Shown here: piece by piece, positions 3,566 through 61,919 of the stretch
How the letters are laid out: the number at the start of each line of letters is the position of its first letter
Position numbering within the stretch: the stretch's first letter is position 1
Source: Escherichia phage PSD2002
DNA: 64,000 nucleotides
Sequence record: OK335775.1
Strand: one strand, 5' to 3'
Notes under the pieces: model-generated
The model's input: the letters and a program-made list of their open reading frames with translations, nothing else
The model's database searches: none
What the model was told of the DNA's origin: nothing
Position numbers and translations under genes: made by a program

Positions 3566-3591
3566 GGAGCTTCGGCTCCTTTTTTGTTTTT
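3566..3591 (+). terminator. Rho-independent terminator after gene 41
   Basis: GGAGC-TTCG-GCTCC hairpin followed by TTTTTTGTTTTT; immediately followed by an early promoter. Confidence 0.7.
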
Positions 3592-3595
3592 AAGG

Positions 3596-3624
3596 GTTTA
3601 CATCTCCTGTAGGCGTGATACTAT
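3596..3624 (+). promoter_or_regulatory. T-even early promoter (GTTTAC-N17-TACTAT)
   Basis: Match to the T4 early promoter consensus with sigma70-like spacing. Confidence 0.6.
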
Positions 3625-3648
3625 AGACCTATCAACTTGGAGAACAAA

Positions 3649-3966
3649 ATGAAAACCATCGACTGTAAAGCAGAATATAAAGTGTATTACCATGGAAGTT
3701 GTAGTGTCGCTAATATCGGTAATATGCTTTGTCCTCCTGAGGAAACAGGAGTTCTGTCTGAAACCGGTCGTAAGAAAAACCTAAATCGTGTGTTCTTTAC
3801 TGAAGATATCGGTTTGGCTAAGATTTATGCCGGACGTGCAGCTCGTTCAGTGGGAGGAGAACCCCGTCTTTATCGTGTAATTGCTCCGGTGGATGTGGTT
3901 TGTTTAAATGATACTAAAGGCGCTACGGTTTATCATGCTGAATGGGCCTTCTGCGAGGAAATCTAA
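3649..3966 (+). CDS. Hypothetical protein, possible minimal ART-like fold
   Basis: ATG at 3649 preceded by GGAGAA; ORF track start at 3637 is a TTG inside the 5' UTR. Contains YYHGS ... KIYAG ... EWAFCEE. Own early promoter upstream. Confidence 0.5.
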   Translation: MKTIDCKAEYKVYYHGSCSVANIGNMLCPPEETGVLSETGRKKNLNRVFFTEDIGLAKIYAGRAARSVGGEPRLYRVIAPVDVVCLNDTKGATVYHAEWAFCEEI

Positions 3967-4161
3967 ATGTCTGAATCAATTAAAGTAAAATTTGTCGGCC
4001 ATTTCGCCAACGGTGATACCGCTACCAAAGAAGCTTCAGTGCGTGAAAACGATATCGTGTGGGTGACTACCCAATTCGCTGAAGTAAATAATATTTTGGT
4101 TAAGGCGTATGTCGACGACGTAGAAGTTTATGAACATGATGCCCGTATTGAGGAAATCTAA
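3967..4161 (+). CDS. dmd: Candidate Dmd (discriminator of mRNA degradation; antitoxin against RnlA/LsoA)
   Basis: 64-aa ORF in the 41-61 interval where T4 encodes dmd; pattern VKVKFVGHF...WVTTQFAEVNNILVKAY resembles the remembered T4 Dmd sequence. Not verifiable without alignment. Confidence 0.4.
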   Translation: MSESIKVKFVGHFANGDTATKEASVRENDIVWVTTQFAEVNNILVKAYVDDVEVYEHDARIEEI

Positions 4162-4302
4162 ATGGAAGAATTTGAATGTGTAGTATGTGGTTGTTCGGTC
4201 TGTGAAGACCAGGCAGTATTTGATGCTTGGGACAACGCAACCTGTTTAGACTGTGACAGCGAATTCGAAGAAATTGCTCATAAACATGAAGGCGAGGAAT
4301 AA
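4162..4302 (+). CDS. Small Cys-rich (zinc-ribbon-like) protein
   Basis: 46-aa ORF with SD GAGGAA, fills the gap between neighbours; CVVCGC...C...CLDC cysteine pattern. Confidence 0.35.
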   Translation: MEEFECVVCGCSVCEDQAVFDAWDNATCLDCDSEFEEIAHKHEGEE

Positions 4303-4542
4303 ATGAATATCGTACTAATGAAACCAACTCCTAGCTCTTTTTGGAATAAATCTTTCGGTAAGCATAATATGTTTATCCAACGTACCGTAAACAACTGGGA
4401 ACTAGTTCTTTCAGTGGGCCACAACGATTATGAACAAGAATACGTAGAGTTCTTCGAATTTCCTGTGAAGCCCACTAAGCGTCAGATTCGTCAGACAAAA
4501 CGTAAATTCCGTAAAATTTCTTTGGAAGATTCATTAAAATAA
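4303..4542 (+). CDS. Hypothetical small protein with basic C-terminal tail
   Basis: 79 aa; SD GGCGAGGAA upstream; C-terminal PTKRQIRQTKRKFRK motif shared with ORF 5330..5551. Confidence 0.45.
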   Translation: MNIVLMKPTPSSFWNKSFGKHNMFIQRTVNNWELVLSVGHNDYEQEYVEFFEFPVKPTKRQIRQTKRKFRKISLEDSLK

Positions 4543-4543
4543 A

Positions 4544-4573
4544 GTTTACAACGGTCTATGGTAGTGATACTAT
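4544..4573 (+). promoter_or_regulatory. Early promoter upstream of spackle-like gene
   Basis: GTTTAC -35 and TACTAT -10. Confidence 0.55.
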
Positions 4574-4601
4574 GGACCTATCAACTAACGAGGAGATTGA
4601 A

Positions 4602-4895
4602 ATGAAAAAGTTATTAATCGCAGCAATTCTTACCGTAGCATCATGTGGCACAGCTCCGGTAACTGCCGGATTGGATAAAGACCTTTGTGAATGGTCTATG
4701 ACTGCAGACCAAGAATCAGTCGAACATCAGATTTATGCTGATATCATGAACATCACTAAACGTGACCGCCCTGATATGGTTAAAGAAGTGTCAGACCAAT
4801 TGGCTTCAGGTGGTGTTATGCAATATAACTATGTTTTGTATTGTGATGCCAATTTCGATAACAAAAATATCGTTAAAGAGGTGACAGGTGAATAA
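4602..4895 (+). CDS. sp: Spackle-like periplasmic protein (superinfection exclusion; inhibitor of gp5 lysozyme)
   Basis: 97 aa from ATG 4602 (SD AGGAG at 4591); N-terminal signal peptide MKKLLIAAILTVASCG; conserved DKDLCEWSMTADQ and GGVMQYNYVLYCD resemble T4 Sp as recalled; located in the 61.x cluster. Confidence 0.6.
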   Translation: MKKLLIAAILTVASCGTAPVTAGLDKDLCEWSMTADQESVEHQIYADIMNITKRDRPDMVKEVSDQLASGGVMQYNYVLYCDANFDNKNIVKEVTGE

Positions 4896-5328
4896 GATTA
4901 ACAGAAATTTAGTTATCAAAAAACTTTGTTGTAAAAATCCAAATGCACAAGCATACAGGATGTTTTGGAGCGACGACCACCAATACCTAGGTTATTTTCT
5001 TGTTGATAGCGATGATCGAATTACAATGGCTCATAAACTTCTTAACAGAGAATTAAACCATTGGCAAGAACTTATTGCGGTGAGGTCTAAATTATTTTCT
5101 CGCAATACAATGCACCAATTGGTTTATTTTTTCGCCGAAGGTATTCCTGACAAGGTTGAGTTTGATGGATTCGAATTTAAAGACATCCTCCCAGACAACG
5201 AATTGAACGACCGCGTTAATATGGACATCCCTAGCAAGTATATCAAAAACAGTCTGTTGAAAATTCTGGAAGCTCCGGTTTATTCAATAGATGACCAGAT
5301 TTTTAATGCCTTTATGAATCGAGGTTAA
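4888..5328 (+). CDS. Hypothetical protein
   Basis: 146-aa ORF beginning at GTG 4888 (start uncertain), SD AAGAGG upstream; no similarity recognised. Confidence 0.45.
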   Translation: MNKINRNLVIKKLCCKNPNAQAYRMFWSDDHQYLGYFLVDSDDRITMAHKLLNRELNHWQELIAVRSKLFSRNTMHQLVYFFAEGIPDKVEFDGFEFKDILPDNELNDRVNMDIPSKYIKNSLLKILEAPVYSIDDQIFNAFMNRG

Positions 5329-5329
5329 T

Positions 5330-5895: not shown

Positions 5896-5933
5896 TATAA
5901 TGGCTCTATTAATTTAGAGCCCAAGGAAAAATA

Positions 5934-6962
5934 ATGTCATATGTCGATAGAGAATTTGCTGTACGTGCCTTGAATTACCAACCTAAATTCAGACAAGTAA
6001 CTGGTAGTGATTTTAAATTAAACTGTCGTTGTCGTGTATGTGGCGACTCCCAAAAAGATGAGAACAAAGCTCGTTTTTGGGCCTATCCGGCTAATGATGG
6101 CTCCGTAATGCTGCACTGTTTTAACTGCGACTATTCAGCAGGAATTAAGAAGTATCTATACGAATATGAGCCGGATTTATATCGAGAATATATTCTTGAG
6201 AAACATAAAGAGCAATCGTTCGGGAGACAAGCTGCACCTAAGGTGGAGATATCTGAAAAAATTAAAGCTAAGATGCCTGTCATCGAAAAGCTTAATTTCT
6301 GTGAACGATTAGATAGAATGCCGAAGGACCATCCTATTATCAAATATGTAACACTACGTTGCATTCCTGAAAACAAATGGAATCGCTTATGGTTTACTAA
6401 AGAATGGCCGGCATTGGTGAACTCTGTCAATCCAGGGACCTATTCTAAAGAAATGCCTGAGCCTCGTTTGGTTATTCCAATTTTCAATAAGAATAAACAA
6501 ATTGAAAGTTTTCAGGGTCGAGCCTTACGTAAAGATGCTCCACAAAAGTATATTACAATAAAAGCTCATGACCAAGCTACAAAAATATATGGAATGGATA
6601 CAGTTGACGAACGTCAGTTGGTGTGGGTAATGGAAGGTCCTATTGATTCATTATTCGTACCTAATGCAATAGCAATTACTGGCGGGTCGTTGGACTTGGC
6701 TATGGTTCCGTGCAAAGAAACTAGGGTTTGGGCCCTTGATAGCGAAAGCCGCCACCCAGATACTATTTCAAGAATGAAAAAGCTTATCGAGGCTGGTGAA
6801 AAAGTAGTGTTTTGGGATAAGGTCCCTTGGCCTTCTAAAGATATTAACGATATGATTAGAAAAGACGGGGCGTCGCCGGAAGCAATACTAGAATATATGA
6901 AAAGTAATTACAGTCAAGGATTAATGGCTAAATTGAGATTACAACGGTATGCTAAAATATGA
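5934..6962 (+). CDS. 61: Gp61 DNA primase
   Basis: 342 aa; N-terminal zinc-binding CRCRVCGD...CFNC and Toprim-like core; matches T4 gp61 in size and sequence as recalled. Confidence 0.95.
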   Translation: MSYVDREFAVRALNYQPKFRQVTGSDFKLNCRCRVCGDSQKDENKARFWAYPANDGSVMLHCFNCDYSAGIKKYLYEYEPDLYREYILEKHKEQSFGRQAAPKVEISEKIKAKMPVIEKLNFCERLDRMPKDHPIIKYVTLRCIPENKWNRLWFTKEWPALVNSVNPGTYSKEMPEPRLVIPIFNKNKQIESFQGRALRKDAPQKYITIKAHDQATKIYGMDTVDERQLVWVMEGPIDSLFVPNAIAITGGSLDLAMVPCKETRVWALDSESRHPDTISRMKKLIEAGEKVVFWDKVPWPSKDINDMIRKDGASPEAILEYMKSNYSQGLMAKLRLQRYAKI

Positions 6963-7714
6963 ATTATAATAAAATTTATGACGATTTGGTTAATAGGGCC
7001 CTTGAAAGGGGTCTTATTAAAGAAAATTTAAAATACTATACAGAATCTCATCATATTATACCTGAATGTATAGGTGGGCCTGATATAGATTCAAACAAAG
7101 TATTATTTACGGCAAGAGAGCATTTTATAGCTCACATATTATTGTATAAGATTTATAAGTTGCCTAAATTAATATATGCTGTGCATATGATGTGCAATTC
7201 TAGCGAAAAGCACCAAAGAAATTCTAAGATGTATGACTGGCTTAGAAAGGAGCATAAAGCAGCCTTAAGTAAGAAAATGACCGATGCTTGGAAAGCCCCT
7301 GAATTTAGGACCAAAATGGTGGCGGCCTTATACCAAAGGCACAAAGATAAGCCCGTCACAGAGGAGACTAGGGAAAAACAGTCTAATTCTCTAAAGAGGT
7401 ATTATAAAGAAAATCCTATCTCTGAAGAAGCAAAAAAGAAAAATTCAGAAGCCCAAAAACAAAGGTTTAAAGATAGGCCTCAAACAGAAGAAACAAAAAG
7501 ATTAAGGAAGGACTCATGCAGAAAAACCCAAGGCACCCCTATATGGTTATGTAATTCGAATGGGGTAGGAATAGAAAAGTTTTCTTCTGCGGCAGAAGCT
7601 AAAGAAATCTTAGGATTGTCCGGGCACACCCAAAATATATACACCGCTTGTAAGCGAAACAAAGAAACCGGGAGATTGTATAAATCCTCCGGTTTAATTT
7701 GGAAATATCAATAA
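6959..7714 (+). CDS. HNH-family homing endonuclease (Mob/I-Hmu-like)
   Basis: 251 aa; HNH core HHIIPECIGGPD...N...EHFIAH followed by a Lys/Glu-rich repeat region and a C-terminal DNA-binding-like module; start overlaps the gene 61 stop (ATGA); markedly AT-rich codon usage compared with flanking genes. Confidence 0.8.
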   Translation: MNYNKIYDDLVNRALERGLIKENLKYYTESHHIIPECIGGPDIDSNKVLFTAREHFIAHILLYKIYKLPKLIYAVHMMCNSSEKHQRNSKMYDWLRKEHKAALSKKMTDAWKAPEFRTKMVAALYQRHKDKPVTEETREKQSNSLKRYYKENPISEEAKKKNSEAQKQRFKDRPQTEETKRLRKDSCRKTQGTPIWLCNSNGVGIEKFSSAAEAKEILGLSGHTQNIYTACKRNKETGRLYKSSGLIWKYQ

Positions 7715-7720
7715 TGGCAT

Positions 7721-7921
7721 TTAAACCTGCATACCTGTAAAGAATCCAATGATGCTCAACACGTGTTCCATAGTAACCGCAGGGAGAGTAATACCCTGAC
7801 TAGCCGCAACAGGTACAACTAAAAGATTCCATAGGAACACATCTAAAGCAAGGAAGCCCATCATGAGCTTTTTATCTTTCTTGCTGGTTAATTTCCAAAT
7901 TTGGTAAAATATACTACCCAT
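7721..7921 (-). CDS. Small hydrophobic (membrane) protein, antisense to the early-gene block
   Basis: 66 aa on - strand, strong SD (AGGAGG 5 nt before ATG), TATAAATA late-promoter motif on - strand at 7943-7950; fills a 206-bp gap not covered by any + strand ORF. Confidence 0.45.
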   Translation of the reverse strand: MGSIFYQIWKLTSKKDKKLMMGFLALDVFLWNLLVVPVAASQGITLPAVTMEHVLSIIGFFTGMQV

Positions 7922-7942
7922 GTTATCCTCCTGTTAAATTAA

Positions 7943-7950
7943 TATTTATA
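7943..7950 (-). promoter_or_regulatory. Late promoter motif TATAAATA for antisense small ORF
   Basis: TATTTATA on + strand, i.e. TATAAATA on - strand, about 22 nt upstream of the - strand ATG at 7921. Confidence 0.45.
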
Positions 7951-7953
7951 TCT

Positions 7954-7977
7954 TGCTTTACAAATTAATGATATAAT
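7954..7977 (+). promoter_or_regulatory. Middle promoter (MotA box TGCTTTA + TATAAT) for gene 56
   Basis: TGCTTTA at 7954-7960, 11 bp spacer, TATAAT at 7972-7977. Confidence 0.55.
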
Positions 7978-8020
7978 TATCTAACTTATTACCTAATATG
8001 AATTGAAAAGGAAAAATATA

Positions 8021-8536
8021 ATGGCTCATTTTAACGAATGTAGTGGTTTGATTGCAGGTGTTGATAAAGCTGAGGAAGCTTATGTTAGTGCAATTACCAA
8101 AGGTATCGACCCACTGCAGGTTATGCTTGATATGCAGAAATCTTTACAGGTTCGTCTGGCTAATGACCGTGATTATTGTTACCACCCGGATAAACTGGCT
8201 ACTGCAGGTGATGTTGTTGGATGGATGCGCGAACAGAAAGACTGCATCGATGATGAATTCCGTGAACTTCTGACTTCACTTGGTGAAATGTCTAAAGGTG
8301 AGAAAGATGCTTCTGCCGTCTGGAAAAAATGGAAGGCACGTTACCCAGAAGCTCAGTCTAAACGTATTGATGAAATGAGCCCTGAAGACCAGTTGGAAAT
8401 TAAATTTGAACTTGTGGACATAATCCATTTCGTATTAAACATGGTTACAGGTCTTGGTATGACTTCTGAAGAATTGTTCAAACTTTATTATCTGAAAAAT
8501 CTTGAAAATTTCAAACGTCAGGACAATGGGTATTAA
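8021..8536 (+). CDS. 56: Gp56 dCTPase/dUTPase (dCTP pyrophosphatase)
   Basis: 171 aa from ATG 8021 (ORF track starts at TTG 8003); MAHFNEC... and long identical blocks match T4 gp56 as recalled. Confidence 0.9.
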   Translation: MAHFNECSGLIAGVDKAEEAYVSAITKGIDPLQVMLDMQKSLQVRLANDRDYCYHPDKLATAGDVVGWMREQKDCIDDEFRELLTSLGEMSKGEKDASAVWKKWKARYPEAQSKRIDEMSPEDQLEIKFELVDIIHFVLNMVTGLGMTSEELFKLYYLKNLENFKRQDNGY

Positions 8537-8540
8537 TCAG

Positions 8541-8548
8541 TATAAATA
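8541..8548 (+). promoter_or_regulatory. Late promoter TATAAATA for soc
   Basis: Exact TATAAATA about 30 nt upstream of the soc start; soc is a late gene in T4. Confidence 0.65.
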
Positions 8549-8579
8549 CACCTGTAATTAAACAACAAAGGAGTTAATT

Positions 8580-8813
8580 ATGGGTGGTTTCGTTAATATC
8601 AAAACCTTTACACATCCAGCTGGTGAAGGTAAAGAAGTTAAAGGTACTGAGGTTTCGGTCCCGTTTGAGATTTATTCAAACGAGCACCGTATTGCAGACT
8701 CTCATTATCAGACTTTCCCTTCGGCCGTTGCAGCCTATACTACTGTAGTGACTGATGCAGCCGATTGGCGAACTAAGAACGCAGCAATGTTCACGCCGAC
8801 CCCAGTAGTTTAA
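8580..8813 (+). CDS. soc: Soc small outer capsid protein
   Basis: 77 aa; VNIKTF...HYQTFPS..AAYTTV matches T4 Soc; TATAAATA late promoter at 8541-8548; terminator downstream. Confidence 0.85.
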   Translation: MGGFVNIKTFTHPAGEGKEVKGTEVSVPFEIYSNEHRIADSHYQTFPSAVAAYTTVVTDAADWRTKNAAMFTPTPVV

Positions 8814-8819
8814 TTATAA

Positions 8820-8842
8820 GGAACCTTCGGGTTCCTTTTTTG
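8820..8842 (+). terminator. Rho-independent terminator after soc
   Basis: GGAACC-TTCG-GGTTCC hairpin plus T-run. Confidence 0.7.
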
Positions 8843-8907
8843 GTTTTAAGGGTTTACTTTCTAAGAAGGTTATGTTAAGATGGTCTTATCTTATAGAGGA
8901 GAACACT

Positions 8908-9117
8908 ATGTTAAATCGTTGGATTAAACCAAATAAATCTTTGGATGAAATTATCGCTAATCATGTATTGAAAAAGTACTTTTATACTCCTTGGTATACC
9001 GAAGTTATTGTCCATTCATTTATGATGCATGAAGACGGTTCTATCGAATTTAATGCCGAAATCCGTCACGAGACTGATGATATCGATAAAGTTGAATTTA
9101 AACGAGGTTTCCTATGA
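8908..9117 (+). CDS. Hypothetical small protein
   Basis: ATG 8908 after AGAGGAG; the ORF-track start at 8872 lies in the promoter -10 region. Confidence 0.4.
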   Translation: MLNRWIKPNKSLDEIIANHVLKKYFYTPWYTEVIVHSFMMHEDGSIEFNAEIRHETDDIDKVEFKRGFL

Positions 9118-9437
9118 TTCGTTGGCTTAAGAATTTTTTCAAGACCAAACCTGGTGAAGGGGTGGTTCCTATCTCAGGTCTGAAGGAATATGTTTATGTG
9201 GGCGATGGTATGATGGAAGAAGTTATCCGTCAACCTGAAAAAGCAGGTAATGTAGGCCCGGGTGCCCTTCCTTTGAATTCTAAAAAGTTTAAAGAGCATC
9301 TAGAAGCTCGTCGCACAAGCCATATTGATACTACTCCTATTATGGTTGCGGCTGCTGTCAGTTCTTGGACTGGTGATTCTTCTTATTCGTCTTATGACTC
9401 AGGAAGCTGTGACTCATCGTCCGGCTCGTGTGATTAA
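9114..9437 (+). CDS. Hypothetical protein with Ser/Cys-rich C-terminal tail
   Basis: 107-aa ORF; C-terminus SSWTGDSSYSSYDSGSCDSSSGSCD. Confidence 0.45.
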   Translation: MIRWLKNFFKTKPGEGVVPISGLKEYVYVGDGMMEEVIRQPEKAGNVGPGALPLNSKKFKEHLEARRTSHIDTTPIMVAAAVSSWTGDSSYSSYDSGSCDSSSGSCD

Positions 9438-9637
9438 TGAAACCTTTATCATGGCTTAAAGATTGGCTGGACCGTCCTGGTGATTATCTTGATGACGGGT
9501 GGTTGGACCAAGCTAATGCAGAAATGAAACGCGAGTCCGAAGAATGGATTCTTAAAGGTATCCGTGAAGAACGCGAAAAGAAATTAGAACGCGAAGCTCT
9601 TAGAATTATGCGTGACATCTATGGGGATAAATCATGA
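9437..9637 (+). CDS. Hypothetical small protein
   Basis: 66-aa ORF in tight array with neighbours. Confidence 0.4.
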
Positions 9638-9801
9638 CTACTGAAGAGGCCGAAAAACAAGCTAAAGAGGCACTGGATTTGCTTCTTAAAATTGGTAGTA
9701 AAATGATGAAAGAAAACGAGAAATACATCCAAGAAAATAAAATTCCGGATGGTCCTTTAGTAGGTAAACTAAGAAGAGGAAATCATAATGAAAGTTTATG
9801 A
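9634..9801 (+). CDS. Hypothetical small protein
   Basis: 55-aa ORF below the track cutoff, start overlaps the previous stop; fills an otherwise non-coding interval. Confidence 0.3.
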
Positions 9802-10276
9802 ACTAGAATTCTTTGTTCGTGATTCTGCCGGACAAACGCGTCCTTATGATGCTACGGCGTGTCTTATCCTTGTCGATAATGGTACGAATTCTATAACCCA
9901 GCTAGAAACACGATTAAAAGATATTAAGCCACCAGAAAATATTCTAATGAAGGCATATCATAATAAAAATGTTGATGTTGCTGAGGGTTGTCCTTTTAGC
10001 CTGGCTGAAGCATTACATATCAAGGGTTATCGCCATCCGGACCCGTATGGCGAAGGAACAATGGACATTTTCTATAAAGATACCGATAGAATGTCCAACG
10101 AACGTCTTAAAGGTCGTACTTATCTTATTTCCGCTACCGAAGACCTTATTGAAGTTGAACGTCAGATTTGGAAGCACTTTGATATTGGATTGCGCTTTAC
10201 CATGACTGAAGACGCTATTCGTGATGCTAAGGTACGAGCTCGTATGTACGAGTACGGTCCTATCGGTGGTTACTAA
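9788..10276 (+). CDS. Hypothetical protein (occupies the mrh position of T4)
   Basis: 162-aa ORF with SD AGAGGA; assignment by position only. Confidence 0.45.
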
Positions 10277-10464: not shown

Positions 10465-10519
10465 AGTTTTACACCTCCTCCCTTCATGTTATAATGACCT
10501 CTAAATCACTGGAGGTCAT

Positions 10520-11089
10520 ATGAACATCGAACAAAAATGTCTTTATCAAGACCGAATCAATTCCAAATTCTCAAAACACGAACAGAATCTTTTAGAAAAA
10601 TGTCTAGATGCTAAAAAGGACCCTAACTTCCATTACGACCTTGATAAGCTAGTTCGTAAGCATGTTACTTCAGCGGTTCCGGTAGAGCTTTATCGTGGGA
10701 TTACCGCTATGGAACTTGAGCAACTTGAAGTTCTTTCTGTTGGGTGCCAGTGGTCTCCTGGCCGGGTTACTTCTTTTAGTACACAATACTCACAGGCTCG
10801 TCAGTTCGCAGGGGCATGGGAATATGGAACCAGAACCATTTTAAGTCTCAGGAATGCACCGTTCATTTTCGACTACTATAACCATGCTATCGACCTTGTT
10901 CTTGCAGGGAATGTGGATGAGCTTGAAATAGATGAAACCCGTATTGACCTCTATGATATGGTTGAAACTGAATGCGAGTTCATGGTCTCCAGCCAATCAC
11001 GATTTGAGATTGTGGAAATCGAAACCGTCAAAAGAGACCCGTACGAAATCGAGTATAAAACAATTCATTTAAAAATGTTGGATTTTTAG
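10520..11089 (+). CDS. ADP-ribosyltransferase, ModA/ModB-like
   Basis: 189 aa; R-S-E class ART signature LYRG ... SFSTQ ... ECEF in correct order and spacing; located between soc and dda where T4 encodes modA/modB. Confidence 0.6.
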   Translation: MNIEQKCLYQDRINSKFSKHEQNLLEKCLDAKKDPNFHYDLDKLVRKHVTSAVPVELYRGITAMELEQLEVLSVGCQWSPGRVTSFSTQYSQARQFAGAWEYGTRTILSLRNAPFIFDYYNHAIDLVLAGNVDELEIDETRIDLYDMVETECEFMVSSQSRFEIVEIETVKRDPYEIEYKTIHLKMLDF

Positions 11090-11143
11090 TTTACAGGCAA
11101 GGAAGCTTGTGGTACTATCTTTCTACCAACTGAGGAGAATAAT

Positions 11144-11827: not shown

Positions 11828-11856
11828 GTTTACTTTATCGAGTAACTTGATACTAT
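11828..11856 (+). promoter_or_regulatory. Early promoter
   Basis: GTTTAC-N17-TACTAT. Confidence 0.55.
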
Positions 11857-11882
11857 AGACATATCAACCAATCGTCCGTAAG

Positions 11883-12629
11883 ATGAGAAATATCATGACT
11901 ACTGAATTTGAGTTAAAGGTTTACAAACGTCGCGAACACACTAAAGCCTCTGCCAAAAAACGTGGTAAGGACTTTAACCTGTCTAGTAAGTATGTTCGTA
12001 GACTTCTTGAACAAAAAGTGTGTGCATATTCAGGCGAACGTTTTGATGAGAATTCAGTTAGTGATAAGATTTCATTTGAACGTTTTAATAATGATATTGG
12101 TTATATCGAAGGTAATGTAATCCCAGTTAAAGTCAAGTACAATAGCTTACGTGCTGATTTGTCTTTAGATGAATTGAAACGTGCACAGACTCGTTTAGCG
12201 TCCCGTATTTCAGGTGGTTCTAAAATGCCTAATAGTTTTAAAGTTACCCCAGATAATTATTATAAAATTCGTAAAATAGTTAAAAATATTAAAGATACCC
12301 AAAGAGGTCTTAAAAAGCGTGAAAAACGTCTTAAGGACCTTATTAAATCAGGAGCTACTGATAAGACCCCTTCCGTCATCGCGGTTAAAGCTCGTATCCA
12401 TGGTTCTAATGCTTCAATTGGTACTATGGAAAAAGGTCTTAAATCTTTAATCGGTGGGCCTGATTGGCGCGTCAAGTTTAAATTGTCTGAAGCAGAAACG
12501 CGTTACGATATGTATGATAAAATTATTCAAGGTCTGGAGCGTTTAGAACACCTTTCTTTTATTGACAAAATGAAGTTGAAAAAAGGTCTTCCACTGAATG
12601 CTTCAATTTTTTCACTGATTAGAGGTTAA
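11883..12629 (+). CDS. Hypothetical protein (srd position)
   Basis: 248-aa ORF between the ART pair and dda; own early promoter at 11828-11856; identity assigned by position only. Confidence 0.45.
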   Translation: MRNIMTTEFELKVYKRREHTKASAKKRGKDFNLSSKYVRRLLEQKVCAYSGERFDENSVSDKISFERFNNDIGYIEGNVIPVKVKYNSLRADLSLDELKRAQTRLASRISGGSKMPNSFKVTPDNYYKIRKIVKNIKDTQRGLKKREKRLKDLIKSGATDKTPSVIAVKARIHGSNASIGTMEKGLKSLIGGPDWRVKFKLSEAETRYDMYDKIIQGLERLEHLSFIDKMKLKKGLPLNASIFSLIRG

Positions 12630-15180: not shown

Positions 15181-15209
15181 GTTTACTTCTCCTCATGACA
15201 TGTTATTAT
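15181..15209 (+). promoter_or_regulatory. Early promoter embedded in a 10-bp inverted repeat
   Basis: GTTTAC-N17-TATTAT; arms TCTCCTCATG (15188-15197) and CATGAGGAGA (15222-15231). Confidence 0.6.
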
Positions 15210-15236
15210 CTACCCTATCAACATGAGGAGAACAAA

Positions 15237-16293: not shown

Positions 16294-16322
16294 GTTTACT
16301 TTATCGAGAGCCGTGTTATAAT
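16294..16322 (+). promoter_or_regulatory. Early promoter
   Basis: GTTTAC-N17-TATAAT with flanking inverted repeat GAGAGCC/GGCTCTC. Confidence 0.6.
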
Positions 16323-16364
16323 GGCTCTCATGGAGAATAAACTTATTAACCAAGAGAGAAAATT

Positions 16365-16916: not shown

Positions 16917-16988
16917 AGTTTAAAAACAGTATACAACAGGGTAGTAGTGTGATACTATTACCCTATCAACAAATGAGAGGAAAATAAA

Positions 16989-17207
16989 ATGGCTAAAGTT
17001 ACTGTGAACTCGACTCGTGAAGAATTTGAAGATGTTCTGTTCAACCCTGATTTAATCGTGGTTCAAAAGGAACATTCTGATACGTTTTCTCATTTATCGT
17101 CGGTTTATGTATACGAAAACCAAGGTGATGAAAACCCTATCTATGCGGTGTTCCGTGAAATCACTGCTGAAGGCACCGACTTCTGGAAGGAAACTTATAA
17201 TGCTTAA
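16989..17207 (+). CDS. Hypothetical small protein
   Basis: 72-aa ORF after early promoter. Confidence 0.4.
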   Translation: MAKVTVNSTREEFEDVLFNPDLIVVQKEHSDTFSHLSSVYVYENQGDENPIYAVFREITAEGTDFWKETYNA

Positions 17208-17821: not shown

Positions 17822-18082
17822 ATGAAATATATTAATCGTTCTATTGCAGCTCTCGTATTAGCAGTTTCTTTGGTTGGATGTACTGATGCCGATAATGCTA
17901 CCCGTGTATTGGATGCAAATGGCTACGAACAAATCCAAATCACAGGATACAACCTATTTGGCTGCTCTGAAGATGATTTCCAACGTACAGGCTTTATTGC
18001 TGTGGGTCCGACAGGTAAAAGGGTTGAAGGAACTGTTTGTTCTGGATTATTCTTTAAAAAGTCGACCATTCGATTTGATTAA
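17822..18082 (+). CDS. Putative lipoprotein
   Basis: 86 aa; signal peptide with lipobox LVGC; terminator follows. Confidence 0.5.
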   Translation: MKYINRSIAALVLAVSLVGCTDADNATRVLDANGYEQIQITGYNLFGCSEDDFQRTGFIAVGPTGKRVEGTVCSGLFFKKSTIRFD

Positions 18083-18100
18083 GGGCTTCGGCCCTTTTAT
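18083..18100 (+). terminator. Rho-independent terminator upstream of gene 39
   Basis: GGGC-TTCG-GCCC plus TTTTAT. Confidence 0.55.
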
Positions 18101-18124
18101 GCTTTAAGTGAAATGGGATAATAT
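18099..18124 (+). promoter_or_regulatory. Middle promoter (MotA box) for gene 39
   Basis: ATGCTTTA followed about 12 bp later by TAATAT. Confidence 0.5.
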
Positions 18125-18148
18125 TCTCCTACTACATGAGGAAATAAC

Positions 18149-19966
18149 ATGATTAAGAATGAAATTAAAGTACTGTCCGACATTGAACATATCAAAAAAC
18201 GTAGTGGGATGTATATTGGCTCCAGTGCTAATGAAGCTCACGGTCGATTCCTGTTTGGCAATTTTACACAGGTAAACTATGTTCCTGGACTGGTTAAATT
18301 AATTGATGAAATCATTGATAACTCTGTCGATGAAGCTATTCGTACCAATTTTAAATTCGCAAATAAAATTGATGTTCAAATTAAGAATAACCAGGTTTCA
18401 GTTTCTGATAATGGTCGTGGTATTCCACAAGCAATGGTCACAGACCAAAATGGTGAACAGATTCCAGGTCCTGTAGCTGCATGGACTATTCCAAAGGCAG
18501 GTGGTAACTTTGGAGATGACGCTGAGCGTAAGACAGGCGGCATGAATGGTGTCGGTAGTAGTTTAACTAATATCTTCTCTGTTTTGTTCACAGGCATCAC
18601 CTCTGATGGTGAGAATGAGATTACTGTTAACTGTTCAAACGGAATGGAAAACAAAGGTTGGTCTACTAAGAAATCTAAAGGTAAGGGTACTTCGGTTATA
18701 TTCACCCCAGACTTTAATCATTTCGAAGAAAATAGCCTGTCACAAATTTATCTGGATATTACATTAGACCGATTGCAAACTCTGGCCGTAGTTTATCCTG
18801 ATATTCAATTTACTTTTAATGGTAAAAAAGTAGATGGCAACTTTAAAAAGTATGCTAAGCAATTTGGTGAAGACTTTGTAATCCAAGAAACCGATAATGT
18901 TTCGATGGCGTTCACTCCTTCTCCGGATGGATTCCGTCAACTGACTTATGTAAACAATATCCACACCAAGAATGGTGGCCACCACGTTGAATGTGTATTC
19001 GATGATATTTGTGAACACCTTCTGCCAGGCATTAAAAAGAAATACCGTGGAATTGAAGTAACTAAAGCTCGTGTTAAAGAATGCCTTACGATGGTGATGT
19101 TCATTCGTGATATGAGCAACATGCGTTTTGATTCACAGACTAAAGAACGTTTGACCTCTCCTTTTGGTGAGATTCGCAATCATATCCAAATTGATGCTAA
19201 GAAAATTGCTCAAGCCATTCTTAAAGTTGATGGGTTGATTATGCCTATCGTTGAAGCTGCTTTAGCACGTAAATTAGCAGCTGAAAAGGCCGCTGAAACT
19301 AAAGCCGCTAAGAAAGCTTCTAAAGCCAAGGTCCATAAGCATATTAAAGCTAACTTATACGGCAAAGATGCTGATACAACCCTGTTCCTAACCGAAGGTG
19401 ATTCCGCTATGGGTCCTTTCATTGAAGTTCGTAATAAAGACCTTCAAGGTGGTTATCCATTACGTGGTAAGGTTATGAATACCTGGGGAATGACAGCAAC
19501 AGATATCATGAAGAACAAGGAGCTATTTGATATCTGTGCAATCACTGGATTGGTTATTGGTGAACCTGCAGAGAAAACCAACTATCGTAATATCGCCATC
19601 ATGACCGATGCCGATGTGGATGGTACTGGTTCGATTTATCCATCATTGCTAGCCTTCTTTAGTCAATGGCCTGAATTGTTCGAACAAGGCCGAGTACGTT
19701 TCTGTAAAACACCTGTAATTATTGCCCAGGTTGGTAAAGAACAGGAATGGTTCTATGATGTGCCTAGTTATACCAAAGCTAAGGACTCTCTACCAAAACA
19801 CTCCATTCGTTATATCAAAGGACTGGGTTCTCTTGAGAAGGCTGAATACCGTCGAATGATTCAAGACCCTAAATTTGATGTGGTTCAATTACCTGAAGAT
19901 TGGAAAGAACAGTTCGAAATGCTCCTTGGTAATGACCCACAACTCCGTAAGGCCTGGATGTCGTAA
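18149..19966 (+). CDS. 39: DNA topoisomerase II large (GyrB-like) subunit, fused gp39+gp60 form
   Basis: 605 aa single ORF; ATPase and Toprim regions; T4 splits this protein into 39 and 60 whereas T2-type phages encode one fused protein. Confidence 0.9.
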   Translation: MIKNEIKVLSDIEHIKKRSGMYIGSSANEAHGRFLFGNFTQVNYVPGLVKLIDEIIDNSVDEAIRTNFKFANKIDVQIKNNQVSVSDNGRGIPQAMVTDQNGEQIPGPVAAWTIPKAGGNFGDDAERKTGGMNGVGSSLTNIFSVLFTGITSDGENEITVNCSNGMENKGWSTKKSKGKGTSVIFTPDFNHFEENSLSQIYLDITLDRLQTLAVVYPDIQFTFNGKKVDGNFKKYAKQFGEDFVIQETDNVSMAFTPSPDGFRQLTYVNNIHTKNGGHHVECVFDDICEHLLPGIKKKYRGIEVTKARVKECLTMVMFIRDMSNMRFDSQTKERLTSPFGEIRNHIQIDAKKIAQAILKVDGLIMPIVEAALARKLAAEKAAETKAAKKASKAKVHKHIKANLYGKDADTTLFLTEGDSAMGPFIEVRNKDLQGGYPLRGKVMNTWGMTATDIMKNKELFDICAITGLVIGEPAEKTNYRNIAIMTDADVDGTGSIYPSLLAFFSQWPELFEQGRVRFCKTPVIIAQVGKEQEWFYDVPSYTKAKDSLPKHSIRYIKGLGSLEKAEYRRMIQDPKFDVVQLPEDWKEQFEMLLGNDPQLRKAWMS

Positions 19967-20172: not shown

Positions 20173-20175
20173 TAA

Positions 20176-46730: not shown

Positions 46731-46731
46731 T

Positions 46732-46992: not shown

Positions 46993-46994
46993 AT

Positions 46995-47023
46995 GTTTAC
47001 AACGCCTTTAAACATGATACTAT
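46995..47023 (+). promoter_or_regulatory. Early promoter cassette (duplicate)
   Basis: Same sequence as the 46289 cassette. Confidence 0.6.
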
Positions 47024-47055
47024 AGACCTATCAACTAATGAGTGAGGAAAATAAA

Positions 47056-47283
47056 ATGGCTAAGGTTAATATTGATATCGTTGATTTTGAATACACTTAC
47101 GAAGTTATCCGTAATCGTTATCCTTCTTTAGTTATGACCCATATTAAAGATACCCAATTCTGTAGTATGCAAATTGAAGTCCAAGGTCCTCTTGAAGACC
47201 TTACCCGCTTTATGGCTGACGAGTATTGTGACGGTATGCACCCGGAAGACACTAAATTTTATATGGGCTTAATTCAAAAATAA
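47056..47283 (+). CDS. Hypothetical small protein
   Basis: ATG 47056 after GAGGAAA. Confidence 0.4.
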
Positions 47284-47284
47284 G

Positions 47285-47314
47285 TTTACACCAGGCTATG
47301 GTAGTGATACTATA
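47285..47314 (+). promoter_or_regulatory. Early promoter
   Basis: GTTTAC ... TACTAT with inverted repeat GGCTAT/ATAGCC. Confidence 0.55.
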
Positions 47315-47338
47315 GCCTTATCAACTAAGGAGAATAAA

Positions 47339-49037: not shown

Positions 49038-49095
49038 AAATTCAAATAATCTGTACTCTGTTTTTGGTTATTATGGTCGGACTGAATTTCATTCT

Positions 49096-49135
49096 ATAAA
49101 TATCAGTCCATGCTTAACAGGTTCTATGATAGAAT
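49096..49135 (+). promoter_or_regulatory. Promoter region for nrdA (late-like TATAAATA plus MotA-box middle promoter)
   Basis: TATAAATA at 49096-49103; TGCTTAA at 49111-49117, 12 bp, TAGAAT; inverted repeat GGTTCTAT/ATAGAACC flanks the -10. Confidence 0.5.
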
Positions 49136-53059: not shown

Positions 53060-54208
53060 ATGATTGAATTATATGATAACTTGATGGCCCTGGTTAAAAA
53101 CTCGACTAAATCTAAGTTCTTCTTTAAAGACTTTCAGAGTGCGCTAGGAGTCAACTATCGCATCTTTAGTTATAACTATGCATCGTACAGTGATTGGTTG
53201 GAAGACGGCGCACTAGAGTGCCGAGGCATTATGTTTGAAATGGACGAGAACGGTCCAGTACGTATTGCTGCTCGTCCTATGCAAAAGTTCTTTAACCTTG
53301 ACGAAAACCCTCTGACCATCGGTCTAGATTTGTCACCAGAAAATATTGACCTCGTAATGGCTAAGGAAGATGGTTCTCTGATTTCTACATTCATGGACCG
53401 ACAGTATCTTTCTGTTAAATCTAAAGGCTCTATCCATTCATCAATGGTGCATGATTCTTTACGGTTCCTTCGTCTCCCTGAGAACGAGGCCTTTGCCGCA
53501 CGTCTAGAAGAAATCACTAAAGCTGGGTATACCTGCAACCTTGAATATGTAGCACCTACCAACCGTATCGTTCTGGCTTACCAAGAAACAAACCTCATCC
53601 TGTTGAACGTTCGTAATAATGAAACAGGTGAATATATTCCGTATGCTGAATTGTTTAAAGATGGTGCCCTGCGTAAGCATTTGGTTGAAAGTTATGAGCT
53701 CGCTGAGGGCGATTTCGTAGAAAACATCCGTAAGCAGGAAGGCATTGAAGGTTTCATCTTTGTACTGAAAGATGGTACGTTCTTTAAACTCAAAACCGCC
53801 TGGTACAGTGCACTGCATCATACCAAAGATTCCATTAACAATAACGAACGTTTGTTTGAAGTTGTAGTGGCTGGTGGTACTGATGACCTTCGTGGTCTGT
53901 TCAGTACGGATTCGTTTGCTATCGAGAAAATCGATGCCTTTGAACGTATCCATTTAGATTACTTAGAACAATCATTAGCCTTGTTAGAAGCAGCGTACTC
54001 CCAACTTAAGGGTCGCGACCGTAAGGACTACGCCGTTACTGGTCAACTAATCCTTAAGGACTTTCCAGGGTTGTTCTCTATTCTTATGCAGGCGTACGTA
54101 GGCGGCATTAATTATGATACGGTCATGGACCAGATTAACTCTGTGTTCTTGAAAAACCATAAAGCCCAAATCCCTGAAAAATATTTGAAAGAAATTGTGG
54201 TAGAGTAG
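53060..54208 (+). CDS. rnlA: RNA ligase 1
   Basis: 382 aa; YRIFSYNYASYSDW, ECRGIMFEMD, IVLAYQE, LLNVRNNETGEYI match T4 gene 63 RNA ligase. Confidence 0.85.
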   Translation: MIELYDNLMALVKNSTKSKFFFKDFQSALGVNYRIFSYNYASYSDWLEDGALECRGIMFEMDENGPVRIAARPMQKFFNLDENPLTIGLDLSPENIDLVMAKEDGSLISTFMDRQYLSVKSKGSIHSSMVHDSLRFLRLPENEAFAARLEEITKAGYTCNLEYVAPTNRIVLAYQETNLILLNVRNNETGEYIPYAELFKDGALRKHLVESYELAEGDFVENIRKQEGIEGFIFVLKDGTFFKLKTAWYSALHHTKDSINNNERLFEVVVAGGTDDLRGLFSTDSFAIEKIDAFERIHLDYLEQSLALLEAAYSQLKGRDRKDYAVTGQLILKDFPGLFSILMQAYVGGINYDTVMDQINSVFLKNHKAQIPEKYLKEIVVE

Positions 54209-54236
54209 TTTACATCTCCTCATGATGTGTTAGTAT
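54208..54236 (+). promoter_or_regulatory. Early promoter embedded in a 9-bp inverted repeat
   Basis: GTTTAC-N17-TAGTAT; arms TCTCCTCAT / ATGAGGAGA, the downstream arm being the SD. Confidence 0.6.
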
Positions 54237-54266
54237 AGACTTACCAACTAATGAGGAGAAAACAAA

Positions 54267-55395: not shown

Positions 55396-55499
55396 TTGAA
55401 GCGTGTACTGATGGATGGGATATTGTTAGATTTGGTTTTGTCTGCTTTTGTTTTGGAATTCTGATTAGTATATGTATTGGCGGTCTTTTCGGAAAGTAG
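55392..55499 (+). CDS. Small membrane peptide
   Basis: 35-aa hydrophobic ORF. Confidence 0.3.
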   Translation: MIEACTDGWDIVRFGFVCFCFGILISICIGGLFGK

Positions 55500-55528
55500 T
55501 TTACAAACTCTTGGGAGCAGAGTATAAT
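55499..55528 (+). promoter_or_regulatory. Early promoter
   Basis: GTTTAC ... TATAAT. Confidence 0.55.
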
Positions 55529-55562
55529 GCTCCTACGGATTATAAAATTTGAGGAAATTATT

Positions 55563-57937: not shown

Positions 57938-58000
57938 GTGTTTACACTATGGTAGGACTGTGGTATAGTAGTCCTACCGAAACAAATGAGGAAATCGAAA

Positions 58001-59893: not shown

Positions 59894-60193
59894 ATGATTT
59901 TAACCGAACAAGAAACTATTCGTCTCCGTGAAAAAGTCAAGACTATTTTGTCTGTTGGTTTTCACGAAGTCCTGTTTGAAAAAGCTGATGGTAGTGCCCG
60001 TCGTATGACTTGTACTCGCGACTTAGACCTGCTGCCGTATAAAGAAGTCCAGGCCCCTGGGCCAGAAGCCAATAAAGAATCTGTTAATTATATCAGAGTA
60101 TTTGATACCAAGGTTAATGATTGGCGCTCATTCCGTTTCGATAAGCTGATTTCTATTAACGGCCTTCAGACTGAAACTCTGCTTGTCCTGTAA
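59894..60193 (+). CDS. Hypothetical protein
   Basis: 99-aa ORF. Confidence 0.4.
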   Translation: MILTEQETIRLREKVKTILSVGFHEVLFEKADGSARRMTCTRDLDLLPYKEVQAPGPEANKESVNYIRVFDTKVNDWRSFRFDKLISINGLQTETLLVL

Positions 60194-60251
60194 TATGCTT
60201 TAAGAATAGCGTGTTATTATTAATCTATCAACAAAACAATATGGATTAAAT

Positions 60252-60575
60252 ATGGAACTTCCTATTAAAGCGGTCGGAGAATATGTTATTCTCGTTTCCG
60301 AACCAAAACAAGCCGGTGATGAAGAAACTACTGCATCTGGTATCGTTATTGGCAAACTTCATCAAGGTGAAATCCCTGAACTTTGTGAAATTTATTCTGT
60401 AGGACCTGATGTCCCTGAAGATTTTTGTGAAGTAGGCGATTTGACTCCACTTCCTGTTGGTAAGATTGCTAACGTGCCTCATCCGTTGGTTGCATTGGGT
60501 ATTAAACAACCTAAAGAAATTAAACAAAAATTCGTTACCTGTCACTATAAAGCTATTCCTTGCCTTTATAAGTGA
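60252..60575 (+). CDS. 31: Gp31 co-chaperonin (GroES analogue)
   Basis: 107 aa; [48 protein letters not shown] match T4 gp31. Confidence 0.9.
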
Positions 60576-60583
60576 TATAAATA
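60576..60583 (+). promoter_or_regulatory. Late-promoter-like TATAAATA downstream of gene 31
   Basis: Exact TATAAATA 140 nt upstream of rIII, at the start of an ORF-free structured interval. Confidence 0.35.
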
Positions 60584-60721
60584 ATAATATGGATTGGCTG
60601 CCGGACTAGTTAGTTAACCGGAGAATCCTAAGCGGTGGACTACAACTGAGAGACTTGCCGAAAGGAAGTGAAATTCAGAAGAACGTGTCCACCAATCTTT
60701 ATCTCGAATTGAGAAACTAAA

Positions 60722-60970
60722 ATGAACAAACAATTGAATCACGCTCTTGAACTGCAACGCAACGCTTGGAACAACGGTCACGAAAACTACGGCGCATCTA
60801 TTGATGTTGAGGCCGAAGCACTGGAAATCCTGCGTTATTTCAAACATCTGAATCCTGCTCAGGCTACTCTGGCTGCTGAACTGGAAGCTAAAGATGAACT
60901 GAAATTTGCTAAGCCTTTGGCTTCAGCAGCTCGTAAAGCAGTACGTCATTTTATTATTACCCTGAAGTAA
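60722..60970 (+). CDS. rIII: rIII lysis-inhibition accessory protein
   Basis: 82 aa after gene 31; size and position as T4 rIII. Confidence 0.8.
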   Translation: MNKQLNHALELQRNAWNNGHENYGASIDVEAEALEILRYFKHLNPAQATLAAELEAKDELKFAKPLASAARKAVRHFIITLK

Positions 60971-61232
60971 GTTAAATCGAGGAGCCGTCGAACTGTTTGA
61001 TTAATGATTTGCGAATCATTATAGTTTTAAGACCCCAACAGTTTTACGGTGTACCTCTTGAATGTATTTTGTACTATCACGCGTCAGAAAAAGGTTATCT
61101 GTCTAAGTCGTGGTTGGTATGATGACGAGGTTTATGGTTATCCTGTCGTTAAATATCCTAAACCTATGTTCCCCTTGAGGGCTTGCGCAGGCAACGCCAA
61201 TAAGTCCTGCATCCTAATTTAAGAGATTTAAA

Positions 61233-61394
61233 ATGGCTAAGAAAGAAGTTAAAGTAGTTGACGGTACCTCTAAACGCGCTGGTTACAAGCGTGCGTCCAA
61301 CAAGCGTATCAATCAGGTAGTTGATAAGCTTCAAGCTCGTGCTCGTGCAGTATTGCGTGCAGATGCTGCTTGCTTTGGTAAGCCTCAGGCATAA
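61233..61394 (+). CDS. Hypothetical small basic protein
   Basis: 53-aa ORF below cutoff, Lys/Arg-rich, followed by a strong terminator. Confidence 0.35.
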   Translation: MAKKEVKVVDGTSKRAGYKRASNKRINQVVDKLQARARAVLRADAACFGKPQA

Positions 61395-61399
61395 GTTAT

Positions 61400-61428
61400 G
61401 GGACTCCGAAGAGTCCCATTTTTGTTTC
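61400..61428 (+). terminator. Rho-independent terminator
   Basis: GGGACTC-CGAA-GAGTCCC plus ATTTTTGTTTC. Confidence 0.7.
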
Positions 61429-61445
61429 TAAATCTTTAAAAAAAT

Positions 61446-61474
61446 GGTGTACATCTCCGGTAGGCATGATACTA
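61446..61474 (+). promoter_or_regulatory. Early promoter cassette
   Basis: GTGTAC ... TACTAT followed by the leader ACCAAATAATACGAAAACAAACT, which is repeated at 61925. Confidence 0.5.
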
Positions 61475-61516
61475 TAGACATGTACCAAATAATACGAAAA
61501 CAAACTGGAGAATAAA

Positions 61517-61885
61517 ATGAAAATCAATCTTAACTCATATATCAAATGTAAAGACCACGACGGTTACAAAGCAATCGAAACTAAAGAAATGCAATGGCAC
61601 TTGTACAAAGAACAATTTGAATTTGTAGGTTGCATGACTCCGGAAGGTCCTTCTGATGACTTCTCTTGGAAAATTATGGTAACAAACTTTTTTACCGGTG
61701 ATACCTACGAACTGAAAACTATCATAACCGGTAAGATTCGTTGTAAGACCTATGAAGATGAAGAAACCGGTTATTCTGAAGATGTTACATGGTATCAAAA
61801 TGGTCGCACTACTGCTGATGAGTTGATTGAAAAAATGAAAGCCAAAGGTGAATTAAATTTAGATAATTGGATTAAAGTTGCATAA
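61517..61885 (+). CDS. Hypothetical protein
   Basis: 122-aa ORF after promoter 61446-61474 and GGAGAA. Confidence 0.45.
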   Translation: MKINLNSYIKCKDHDGYKAIETKEMQWHLYKEQFEFVGCMTPEGPSDDFSWKIMVTNFFTGDTYELKTIITGKIRCKTYEDEETGYSEDVTWYQNGRTTADELIEKMKAKGELNLDNWIKVA

Positions 61886-61889
61886 AACA

Positions 61890-61919
61890 GTTTACTTTGG
61901 TACAGGTTGTGTTATTATA
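61890..61919 (+). promoter_or_regulatory. Early promoter cassette
   Basis: GTTTAC ... TATTAT flanked by inverted repeat GGTACAGG/CCTGTACC, then the same leader as at 61475. Confidence 0.55.

Follow-up and report, generated by a model that had tools for sequence, protein, structure and literature searches.

Organization of the early regions

The subject of this work is a family of repeated promoter units in Escherichia phage PSD2002 (OK335775.1), analysed in a stretch of 64,000 nucleotides (nt) that we refer to as the window. A megablast search with bases 1–25000 identified a T4-like phage of the genus Dhakavirus (JS98/Bp7 group), with 94–96% identity to known phages; 41 records matched over 80% or more of the query length. 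According to the annotation of Bp7 and five other relatives, from which the gene order was taken, the plus strand carries uvsX, 40, 41, dmd, sp, 61, 56, soc, mrh, modB, modA, srd and dda, followed by dexA, motB, cef, 39, rIIA, rIIB, denB, ndd, 52, motA, arn and asiA. The late tail-fibre block (t, 38, 37, 36, 35 and 34) occupies the minus strand at about 31.6–42.3 kb, after which the plus strand resumes with rnh, dsbA, 33, 59, 32, frd, td, nrdA and nrdB and ends with denA, rnlA, alc, pseT, cd, 31, rIII and the 30.x genes. This order identifies the plus strand as the early-transcribed strand of two early regions flanking the late block. An earlier note on this DNA had described the repeats as promoter-early stem-loop (PeSL) cassettes; all the repeat elements it quoted are present, within 1–2 nt of where it had placed them, and the modules do have PeSL anatomy, with an early promoter, an A-rich region upstream of it, a stem-loop and a Shine–Dalgarno (SD) sequence with ATG.

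A family of predicted early promoters on one strand

The promoter unit comprises an UP element, GTTTAC, a spacer of 17–18 nt, TGnTACTAT, CCTATCAAC and a GGAG SD; the extended motif reads A-rich UP, GTTTAC(ATCTCC), 17 or 18 nt, (G)TGA-TACTAT-AGACCTATCAACTAATGAGG. A generic sigma-70 (TTGACA/TATAAT) and terminator scan was not enriched over shuffled sequences (63 sigma-70 sites vs 56 expected; 60 vs 58); only the extended motif stands out. Because the generic scan was unable to single out the family, an iterated two-block position weight matrix (PWM) of the family was used instead. In the window, this matrix returned 24 sites of at least 22 bits, 24 of 24 on the plus strand, compared with a best score of 15.2 on the minus strand and 10.8 in 10 random sequences; the matrix was trained on the same sites and the absolute scores are therefore inflated, while the strand asymmetry and the separation are still clear. 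The late tail-fibre genes of the minus strand, at 32–42 kb, contain no cassette. All 24 sites have the features of early promoters, namely a −35 element, a 17 ± 1 nt spacer, TGn, TAnnnT and an A-rich UP region. The −35 is exactly GTTTAC in 18 of them, the spacer is 17 nt in 16 and 18 nt in 8, and the −10 box is TACTAT in 13, TATAAT in 5 and another TAnnnT in the remaining 6.

Genes of known early function lie downstream of 11 of the 24 promoters: sp (spackle; promoter plus leader, 4544–4601), modB (10467–10519), modA (11089–11143), srd (11828–11894), motB (16294–16364), cef (16929–16988), ndd (26443–26520), motA (28876–28939), asiA (31254–31323), rnh (42374–42433) and alc (54208–54266). Downstream of the others are conserved T4 orthologues whose function is unknown (six promoters) or hypothetical open reading frames (ORFs; seven promoters). 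The claim that a small ORF of unknown function follows every cassette does not hold. Other members of the family stand upstream of a 105-amino-acid (aa) ORF followed by dmd (promoter plus leader, 3596–3648), of mrh.2 (8852–8907, with an 18-nt spacer and TAAGAT as −10), of motB.2 (15181–15236), and of frd.2 (46289–46346) and frd.1 (47284–47338). The cef leader of MN04 (L009) contains, inserted directly after the promoter, a hydrophobic mini-ORF of 22 codons, MFAPYIMITVIVICLYLLIKAC, that has a GGAG SD of its own (about 17073–17178, equivalent to window positions 16977–16993).

The GenBank record of T4 annotates no promoters; its denB–asiA region, scanned directly with the family PWM, contains the same motif, including CTATCAACTA after the −10 box, upstream of ndd.6, ndd.4, motA and asiA, and three of the four T4 sites scanned share the preference for TACTAT over TATAAT. 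Since T4 has the same motif at orthologous sites, including what the earlier note had called a conserved leader, the repeats are promoters first. In the window, the 22-nt leader sequence GATACTATAGACCTATCAACTA was matched 8 times when as many as 3 mismatches were allowed, with 0 expected from 100 shuffles, and occurs also at 11849 and 47306, beyond the sites listed in the earlier note. As judged from the sequence, this leader mostly coincides with the −10/+1 portion of the early promoter consensus of T-even phages and is no separate element. The same −10/+1 features are found in two MotA-type middle promoters (18119 and 60215; TGCTTTA-N12-TAnnAT), one of them in front of gene 39 with TAATAT as its −10 and the other, at 60193–60235, with TATTAT and the CTATCAAC element. 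Sequences resembling the −10 box plus leader, lacking a GTTTAC −35, occur at 589–594 upstream of uvsX and at 5896–5901 upstream of gene 61; these are probably middle promoters, because T4 has PuvsX and P61 middle promoters (PMC2988021), and a clear TGCTT MotA box is not seen at 5896.

Within the repeat, the SD segment GGAGAAYAAAATG conforms to GGAGRAYARAA, the consensus of strong RegB/S1 cleavage sites in the translation-initiation region of early mRNAs (PMC3014915). Five exact matches were found vs 0.3 expected, all at promoter-proximal SDs on the plus strand, and are predicted strong RegB sites; they include the SDs behind the promoters at 3596–3648 and 47284–47338.

Repeated pairs occur at three places: the copies at 46289 and 46995 (the latter promoter spanning 46995–47055) are identical over 43 nt, those at 25008 and 25295 share 34 nt at 97% identity, and those at 61467 and 61910 share 40 nt at 93% identity, all as the earlier note had proposed for the 43-bp copies and for the leader pairs near 25000/25287 and 61446/61890.

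Putative terminator hairpins upstream of the promoters

Hairpins of the C(UUCG)G type, which were reportedly first noted in T4 intercistronic regions, occur 10 times on the plus strand in sense orientation and twice more on the minus strand inside the late region. In five cases a hairpin with a T-run lies 15–30 nt upstream of an early promoter: after gene 41 (3564–3581; hairpin, T-run and promoter together 3564–3624), after soc (8818–8837; 8818–8881), after gene 52 (28836–28855; 28836–28904), after gene 32 (46253–46272, with the promoter at 46289) and at 61398–61419 (with the promoter at 61447). The class that the earlier note had defined by hairpin, T-run and GTTTAC-N17-TACTAT stood at its three sites, apart from an 18-nt spacer and a TAAGAT −10 box at 8852. 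UUCG hairpins also precede the gene 39 middle promoter (hairpin and promoter, 18081–18124) and, after gene 39, a weak promoter-like site at 20198 (hairpin, 20174–20191). By their sequence, only five or six of the UUCG hairpins, those with a T-run, look like intrinsic terminators. No Rfam family reached its gathering score anywhere in the window.

The 20-nt hairpin AAGGAACCTTCGGGTTCCTT is identical at 8818–8837 and 28836–28855 on the plus strand and at 37148–37129 on the minus strand, all three copies having UUCG in the transcribed sense and the last lying in the late tail-fibre operon. Another hairpin, GGAGGCTTCGGCCTCC, is identical at the intercistronic positions 23966–23981 and 62344–62359, with an SD directly after it and without a T-run. 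At 61398–61419, the hairpin ATGGGACTC-loop-GAGTCCCAT differs between the window and its relatives by inversion of the 4-nt loop within a perfect inverted repeat: the loop is CGAA in the window and TTCG in all six relatives compared, and the UUCG tetraloop is thereby lost from the sense RNA.

Hairpins within the promoters

In many promoters, the spacer and the sequence after the −10 box form an inverted repeat. The longest perfect stem averages 5.67 bp in cognate arm pairs vs 4.49 bp in non-cognate ones, and the mean duplex energy is −9.6 vs −6.9 kcal/mol (permutation p < 5e-5 for each). Internal hairpins over the −10 box or the ribosome site are present in at least 9 promoters, and nine regions fold with z values from −2.9 to −6.1, the latter being the hairpin that encloses the −10 box of the motB promoter. 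Hairpins likewise cover the −10 box of the ndd promoter and of those at 55499–55562, 57940–57999 and 61890–61967 (12 bp), and the spacer pairs with the SD in stems of 11 bp at motB.2 and 9 bp at alc. Significant internal folding was not seen in three tested promoters with an upstream terminator, and an internal hairpin is present in 1 of 5 promoters with such a terminator vs 10 of 19 without, a sample too small for significance; it is suggestive of an upstream terminator going with the lack of an internal hairpin. Stem-loop position defines the PeSL subclasses (PMC2839356), and about 15 of the 24 promoters have a stem-loop in one of these positions, five as upstream UUCG terminators and nine as internal hairpins. 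Among orthologous variants, pairing is mostly kept through G–U-compatible transitions, and independent promoter alleles again have a stem over the −10 box. This hints at a role at the RNA level, with the proviso that transitions are common anyway.

For modB, motB.2, the ORF at 25755, rnh and alc, the arm upstream of +1 (the discriminator arm in modB) is predicted to pair with the SD in read-through RNA. The predicted probability that the SD is unpaired is at most 0.09 in the read-through transcript vs 0.45–0.81 in the transcript from the own promoter, and the cognate upstream sequence ranks first or second of 24 in sequestering the SD of these five genes. Family-wide SD sequestration by the cognate upstream sequence was rejected when non-cognate upstream sequences were swapped in (permutation p = 0.94). 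The cognate ranks are bimodal: of 24, 8 rank fourth or higher and 7 rank 21st or lower.

Exchange between promoter copies in related phages

For comparison, the homologous 64–68 kb were assembled for each of six relatives (Bp7, ABTNLS3, PSD9, AnYang, MN04 and CLB_P2), and blastn high-scoring segment pairs were chained against the window, leaving the tail-fibre genes out of the event count. About 26 distinct indel or replacement events were found. Five of them have both junctions inside promoter copies, with an overlap of 30–76 nt, and a sixth appears to be of the same kind.

At 25041|25295, a 75-aa ORFan (25059–25286), absent from all six relatives, lies between two promoter copies, the left one (24998–25058) complete and the right one (25286–25342) partial, without a good −35 and in front of an 88-aa ORF; each of the six relatives has a single promoter copy and no ORF. 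At 25695–25724, in the plastic denB–ndd locus, the promoter that is single in the window (25700–25754) occurs twice in CLB_P2, with an additional 63-aa ORF in between. At 28867–28942, the motA promoter is duplicated around an ORF in Bp7 and CLB_P2, in MN04 and in AnYang, the three ORFs being unrelated to one another. The locus is empty in the window and in ABTNLS3; it is empty also in PSD9, but there the leader of the left copy is fused to motA, a chimera consistent with the footprint of a past deletion. At 46350|46995, the interval separating the two promoters with 43 identical nt is gone from AnYang, which retains one hybrid promoter and leader with an overlap of 63 nt. At 61552|61891, an allele whose protein is 39% identical takes the place of the gp30.8-family ORF (61517–61885) in Bp7, ABTNLS3 and MN04; the exchange runs exactly from ATG+7 to the −35 of the next promoter, between the conserved promoters at 61447–61516 and 61890–61967. 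In the sixth event, the AnYang deletion 61493|62362, one junction lies in the −10/+1 region and a typical leader is on the other side.

A second footprint, consistent with a past deletion, is the chimeric leader of the denB-proximal promoter of MN04. The site orthologous to 46995 is occupied among the relatives by three promoter alleles, one like the 46289 promoter, one like the motA promoter and one of a hairpin type; such paralogue-like alleles suggest, from sequence comparison, conversion among cassettes. The crossover points vary by event, falling in the −35 region, the spacer, the −10/+1 region or the SD, and for this reason homology-driven exchange fits rather than a site-specific enzyme. 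The promoter clusters at 24998–26443, 46289–47284 and 61447–61890 coincide with the most variable loci.

Other indels in the region

Seven or eight of the events are of the homing-endonuclease or intron type, among them 6959–7714, 44591–45226, an HNH endonuclease before gene 39 in Bp7, the nrdB intron and a GIY-YIG insertion in PSD9. About nine are ORF-precise indels with 4–10 nt of microhomology (5332|5523, 17203|17639, 49094–99, 55566|56041, 57248, 58776, 59338|59657, 48176–83 and 47569–75), two are exchanges in 20–28 nt repeats of ribosome-binding site plus ORF start, and one is an unequal crossover between tandem paralogues.

Homing-endonuclease ORFs are present and absent in differing combinations among the seven genomes and account for about a quarter of the indels of the region. 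Besides the two sites of the window named above, they are located at 17863–18543 (L001) and 2883–3689 (L002) of Bp7, and in AnYang between genes 33 and 59 and between 56 and soc. The PSD9 insertion, 2.4 kb between genes 61 and 56 (7686–10095 on the reverse complement of L006 plus L005), begins with a strong early promoter and contains three ORFs, the first of 499 aa with an N-terminal GIY-YIG (LEM-3-like) domain and an NPPF motif suggesting a methyltransferase, the other two (160 and 122 aa) without a Pfam match. Owing to the GIY-YIG domain in its first ORF, it was dropped as a cassette-borne insertion and counted as a homing-endonuclease-type event.

The tandem paralogous 70-aa ORFs of the window (62858–63070 and 63080–63292) begin alike, with 78% identity over 77 nt; Bp7, MN04 and CLB_P2 have a single such ORF, and the 18-nt overlap at the junction fits unequal crossover. 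AnYang lacks a larger block there (62816|63297). At 49094–49099, the window alone is missing nrdA.1, a 287-nt segment that five of the six relatives have (AnYang was not resolved); no promoter is involved, and the microhomology at the junction is 6 nt long. At 55566|56041, 474 nt are missing in Bp7 and AnYang, with the first ~13 codons of the 55527/55563 ORF fused in frame to the ORF at 56042, and CLB_P2 has a replacement. In the late block, minus-strand gene 34 contains four copies of a degenerate repeat of ~68 nt (40231–40901; 60–71% identity), probably a repeated structural motif of gp34, the proximal tail fibre.

Promoters as probable portable homology

We consider it likely that the repeats are sigma-70-dependent early promoters with regulatory neighbours that also serve as portable recombination homology. 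In this view each promoter comes with a hairpin, either internal or in the form of a C(UUCG)G intrinsic terminator lying upstream, and with a short leader and a GGAG SD that often fits the RegB consensus. Judging from sequence and T4 orthology, its primary role would be immediate-early transcription of the leftward and rightward early blocks by the host RNA polymerase. Being 40–75 nt long, near-identical and in the same orientation, the promoters would also provide portable homology for the phage recombination or replication machinery. A crossover between two copies would delete the intervening ORF and the reciprocal event would insert one, whereas crossovers in two conserved cassettes flanking a gene would swap in a divergent allele. 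Deletion, insertion and allele swap are each shown, at the level of sequence, by junctions in the relatives; the enzymology and any circular intermediate would follow the PeSL papers, which supply the definition of the unit and the evidence for minicircles (PMC2839356, PMC4122927).

Several observations weigh against such a role and set its limits. Promoter-to-promoter events are about 5–6 of ~26, or a fifth, and most other ORF indels are due to microhomology or homing endonucleases. Both breakpoints fall in promoters about three times as often as the ~7% expected from promoter-flanked single-gene units, which is modest support, and at least one breakpoint is near a promoter in 12 of 26 events, not clearly above the ~41% expected when 23% of junctions have promoters and indels are of single ORFs. 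In all six relatives, 21 of the 24 promoter positions are occupied, a static picture across seven genomes. About 9 of the 24 promoters, for example 11828, 24998, 31254 and 46995, have no convincing stem-loop. The ORFan at 25059–25286 was found in only 6 records, covering five other Dhakavirus phages, with no match outside the genus, and its copy in UGJNEcP3, the one inspected, is at the same locus, so that there is no sign of movement between loci. The case rests on junction anatomy.

The same facts can be read as describing promoters and nothing more, alike through selection for RNA polymerase binding and overlapping with indels incidentally, given that viable indels must fall between genes. 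The shared consensus in T4, the synteny of most sites and the near-expected share of events with a single promoter-proximal breakpoint would all fit. We nevertheless regard this reading as improbable, as it leaves unexplained why junction overlaps of 30–76 nt coincide exactly with promoter copies when those of the other indels measure 4–10 nt, why three different ORFs occur within the same duplicated motA promoter, and how hybrid promoters or leaders arose in AnYang, PSD9 and MN04 and paralogue-like alleles at one orthologous site. At the other extreme, the cassettes might be autonomous mobile elements with a dedicated site-specific recombinase or a homing endonuclease recognizing the stem-loop. 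A helper protein of this kind has been raised as a possibility (PMC2839356), and homing-endonuclease genes are abundant and variable in the region, but the crossover points follow no fixed site, the endonuclease-associated indels are at other junctions without promoter duplication, and no terminal inverted repeats or target duplications were seen; we hold this to be very improbable.

The hairpins, for their part, might act mainly as a translational gate, in which an anti-SD in the spacer or discriminator hides the SD in read-through RNA and translation proceeds only from transcripts of the own promoter. Genes e, soc and 49 of T4 are gated in this way from their late promoters, and the early genes would offer an analogue. 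The low SD accessibility predicted for modB, motB.2, the 25755 ORF, rnh and alc in read-through RNA and the long stems at 15181 and 54208 speak for a gate, which we nonetheless find rather unlikely as the main function: it is a prediction, it is not general when cognate and non-cognate upstream sequences are compared, seven promoters are the least sequestering of all 24 upstream sequences for their own SD, and many hairpins enclose the −10 box only, leaving the SD free. An elaboration that strikes us as unlikely would divide the promoter hairpins into two opposite classes, in line with the bimodal ranks of the cognate upstream sequences, and would turn the choice of promoter into a translational switch operating generally on early genes. 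The five genes just named would form one class, translated solely from their own promoter transcripts, a modelled behaviour that we doubt; in the other (motB, 55499, 57940 and others), put forward with equal reserve, the −10-box hairpin would tie up an anti-SD-like spacer and the SD would stay open in read-through RNA.

Returning to promoters that double as recombination homology, in the alignment with six relatives ORFs have been gained, lost or exchanged exactly between promoter copies, and cassette-flanked ORFs are thus not invariant among them. The shuffling by recombination envisaged in the earlier note applies to a minority of events, the 5–6 with both junctions in promoters, and not to the rest; nor do the cassettes simply mark the plastic part of the genome, most of their positions being conserved and most indels being of other kinds. 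Shuffling at such cassettes had already been described in other T4-type phages. The interpretation in the note is thus partly supported: its central idea was right and its generality overreached. The PeSL model of modular shuffling is hereby extended to a fourth T4-type lineage, Dhakavirus, members of which have been explored for phage therapy. The junction evidence is unusually clean, comprising three ORFs in one duplicated promoter, hybrid promoters and deletion footprints, and it is accompanied by the finding that promoter-mediated exchange makes up only about a fifth of the indels, with homing endonucleases and microhomology behind most of the rest. The pairs 24998/25286, 46289/46995 and 61447/61890 are predicted sites of spontaneous deletion and natural landing pads for engineering.

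Comparison with known systems

PeSL-like sequences near gene 43 of JS98 have been mentioned (PMC2839356); a systematic description of PeSLs for Dhakavirus was not found in the literature. The closest counterparts are the PeSLs of T4/PST and nt-1/KVP40 described by Comeau, Arbiol & Krisch in 2014 (PMC4122927). Their T-even form, TTTACW N17 TAYWAT, matches the family described here; the stem-loop is placed just upstream of the promoter and the SD plus ATG at the 3′ end, and they cluster in hyperplastic loci where indels and replacements are bounded by cassettes, the denB–ndd interval being plastic in the window as in the T4/PST example (ndd.4/.5). The Dhakavirus cassettes differ in that their upstream hairpins are nearly all C(UUCG)G tetraloops, that many of their stem-loops resemble those of RB49 in covering the −10 box or pairing with the SD instead of being placed upstream, and that half of the promoters drive conserved, named early genes.

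The PeSLs of RB49/phi1 (Arbiol et al. 2010, PMC2839356) similarly combine promoter, stem-loop and SD, the stem-loop often being located between −35 and −10 or over the −10 box, and ORFans are lost or gained there by exchange between flanking copies with crossover points scattered over the cassette. The RB49 promoters are, in contrast, near-perfect TTGACA/TATAAT with polyG/polyC stems, and minicircles as well as terminator and promoter activity were shown experimentally for RB49/phi1, whereas the cassettes of the window are known from their sequence. The T4 early promoter, with its UP element, −35 GTTTAC, TGn, −10 box and extra conserved positions (Hinton 2010, PMC2988021; Nolan et al. 2006, PMC1524935), shares with ours GTTTAC, the A-rich UP region, TGn, the positions beyond the sigma-70 elements and the orthologous genome positions. 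Our direct scan found the +1 motif CTATCAAC in T4 as well, leaving no difference of substance. Lambdoid morons (PMC2839356) are comparable as single genes that bring their own promoter and terminator; however, moron insertion is not thought to depend on conserved flanks, while here it is the flanks that supply the homology.

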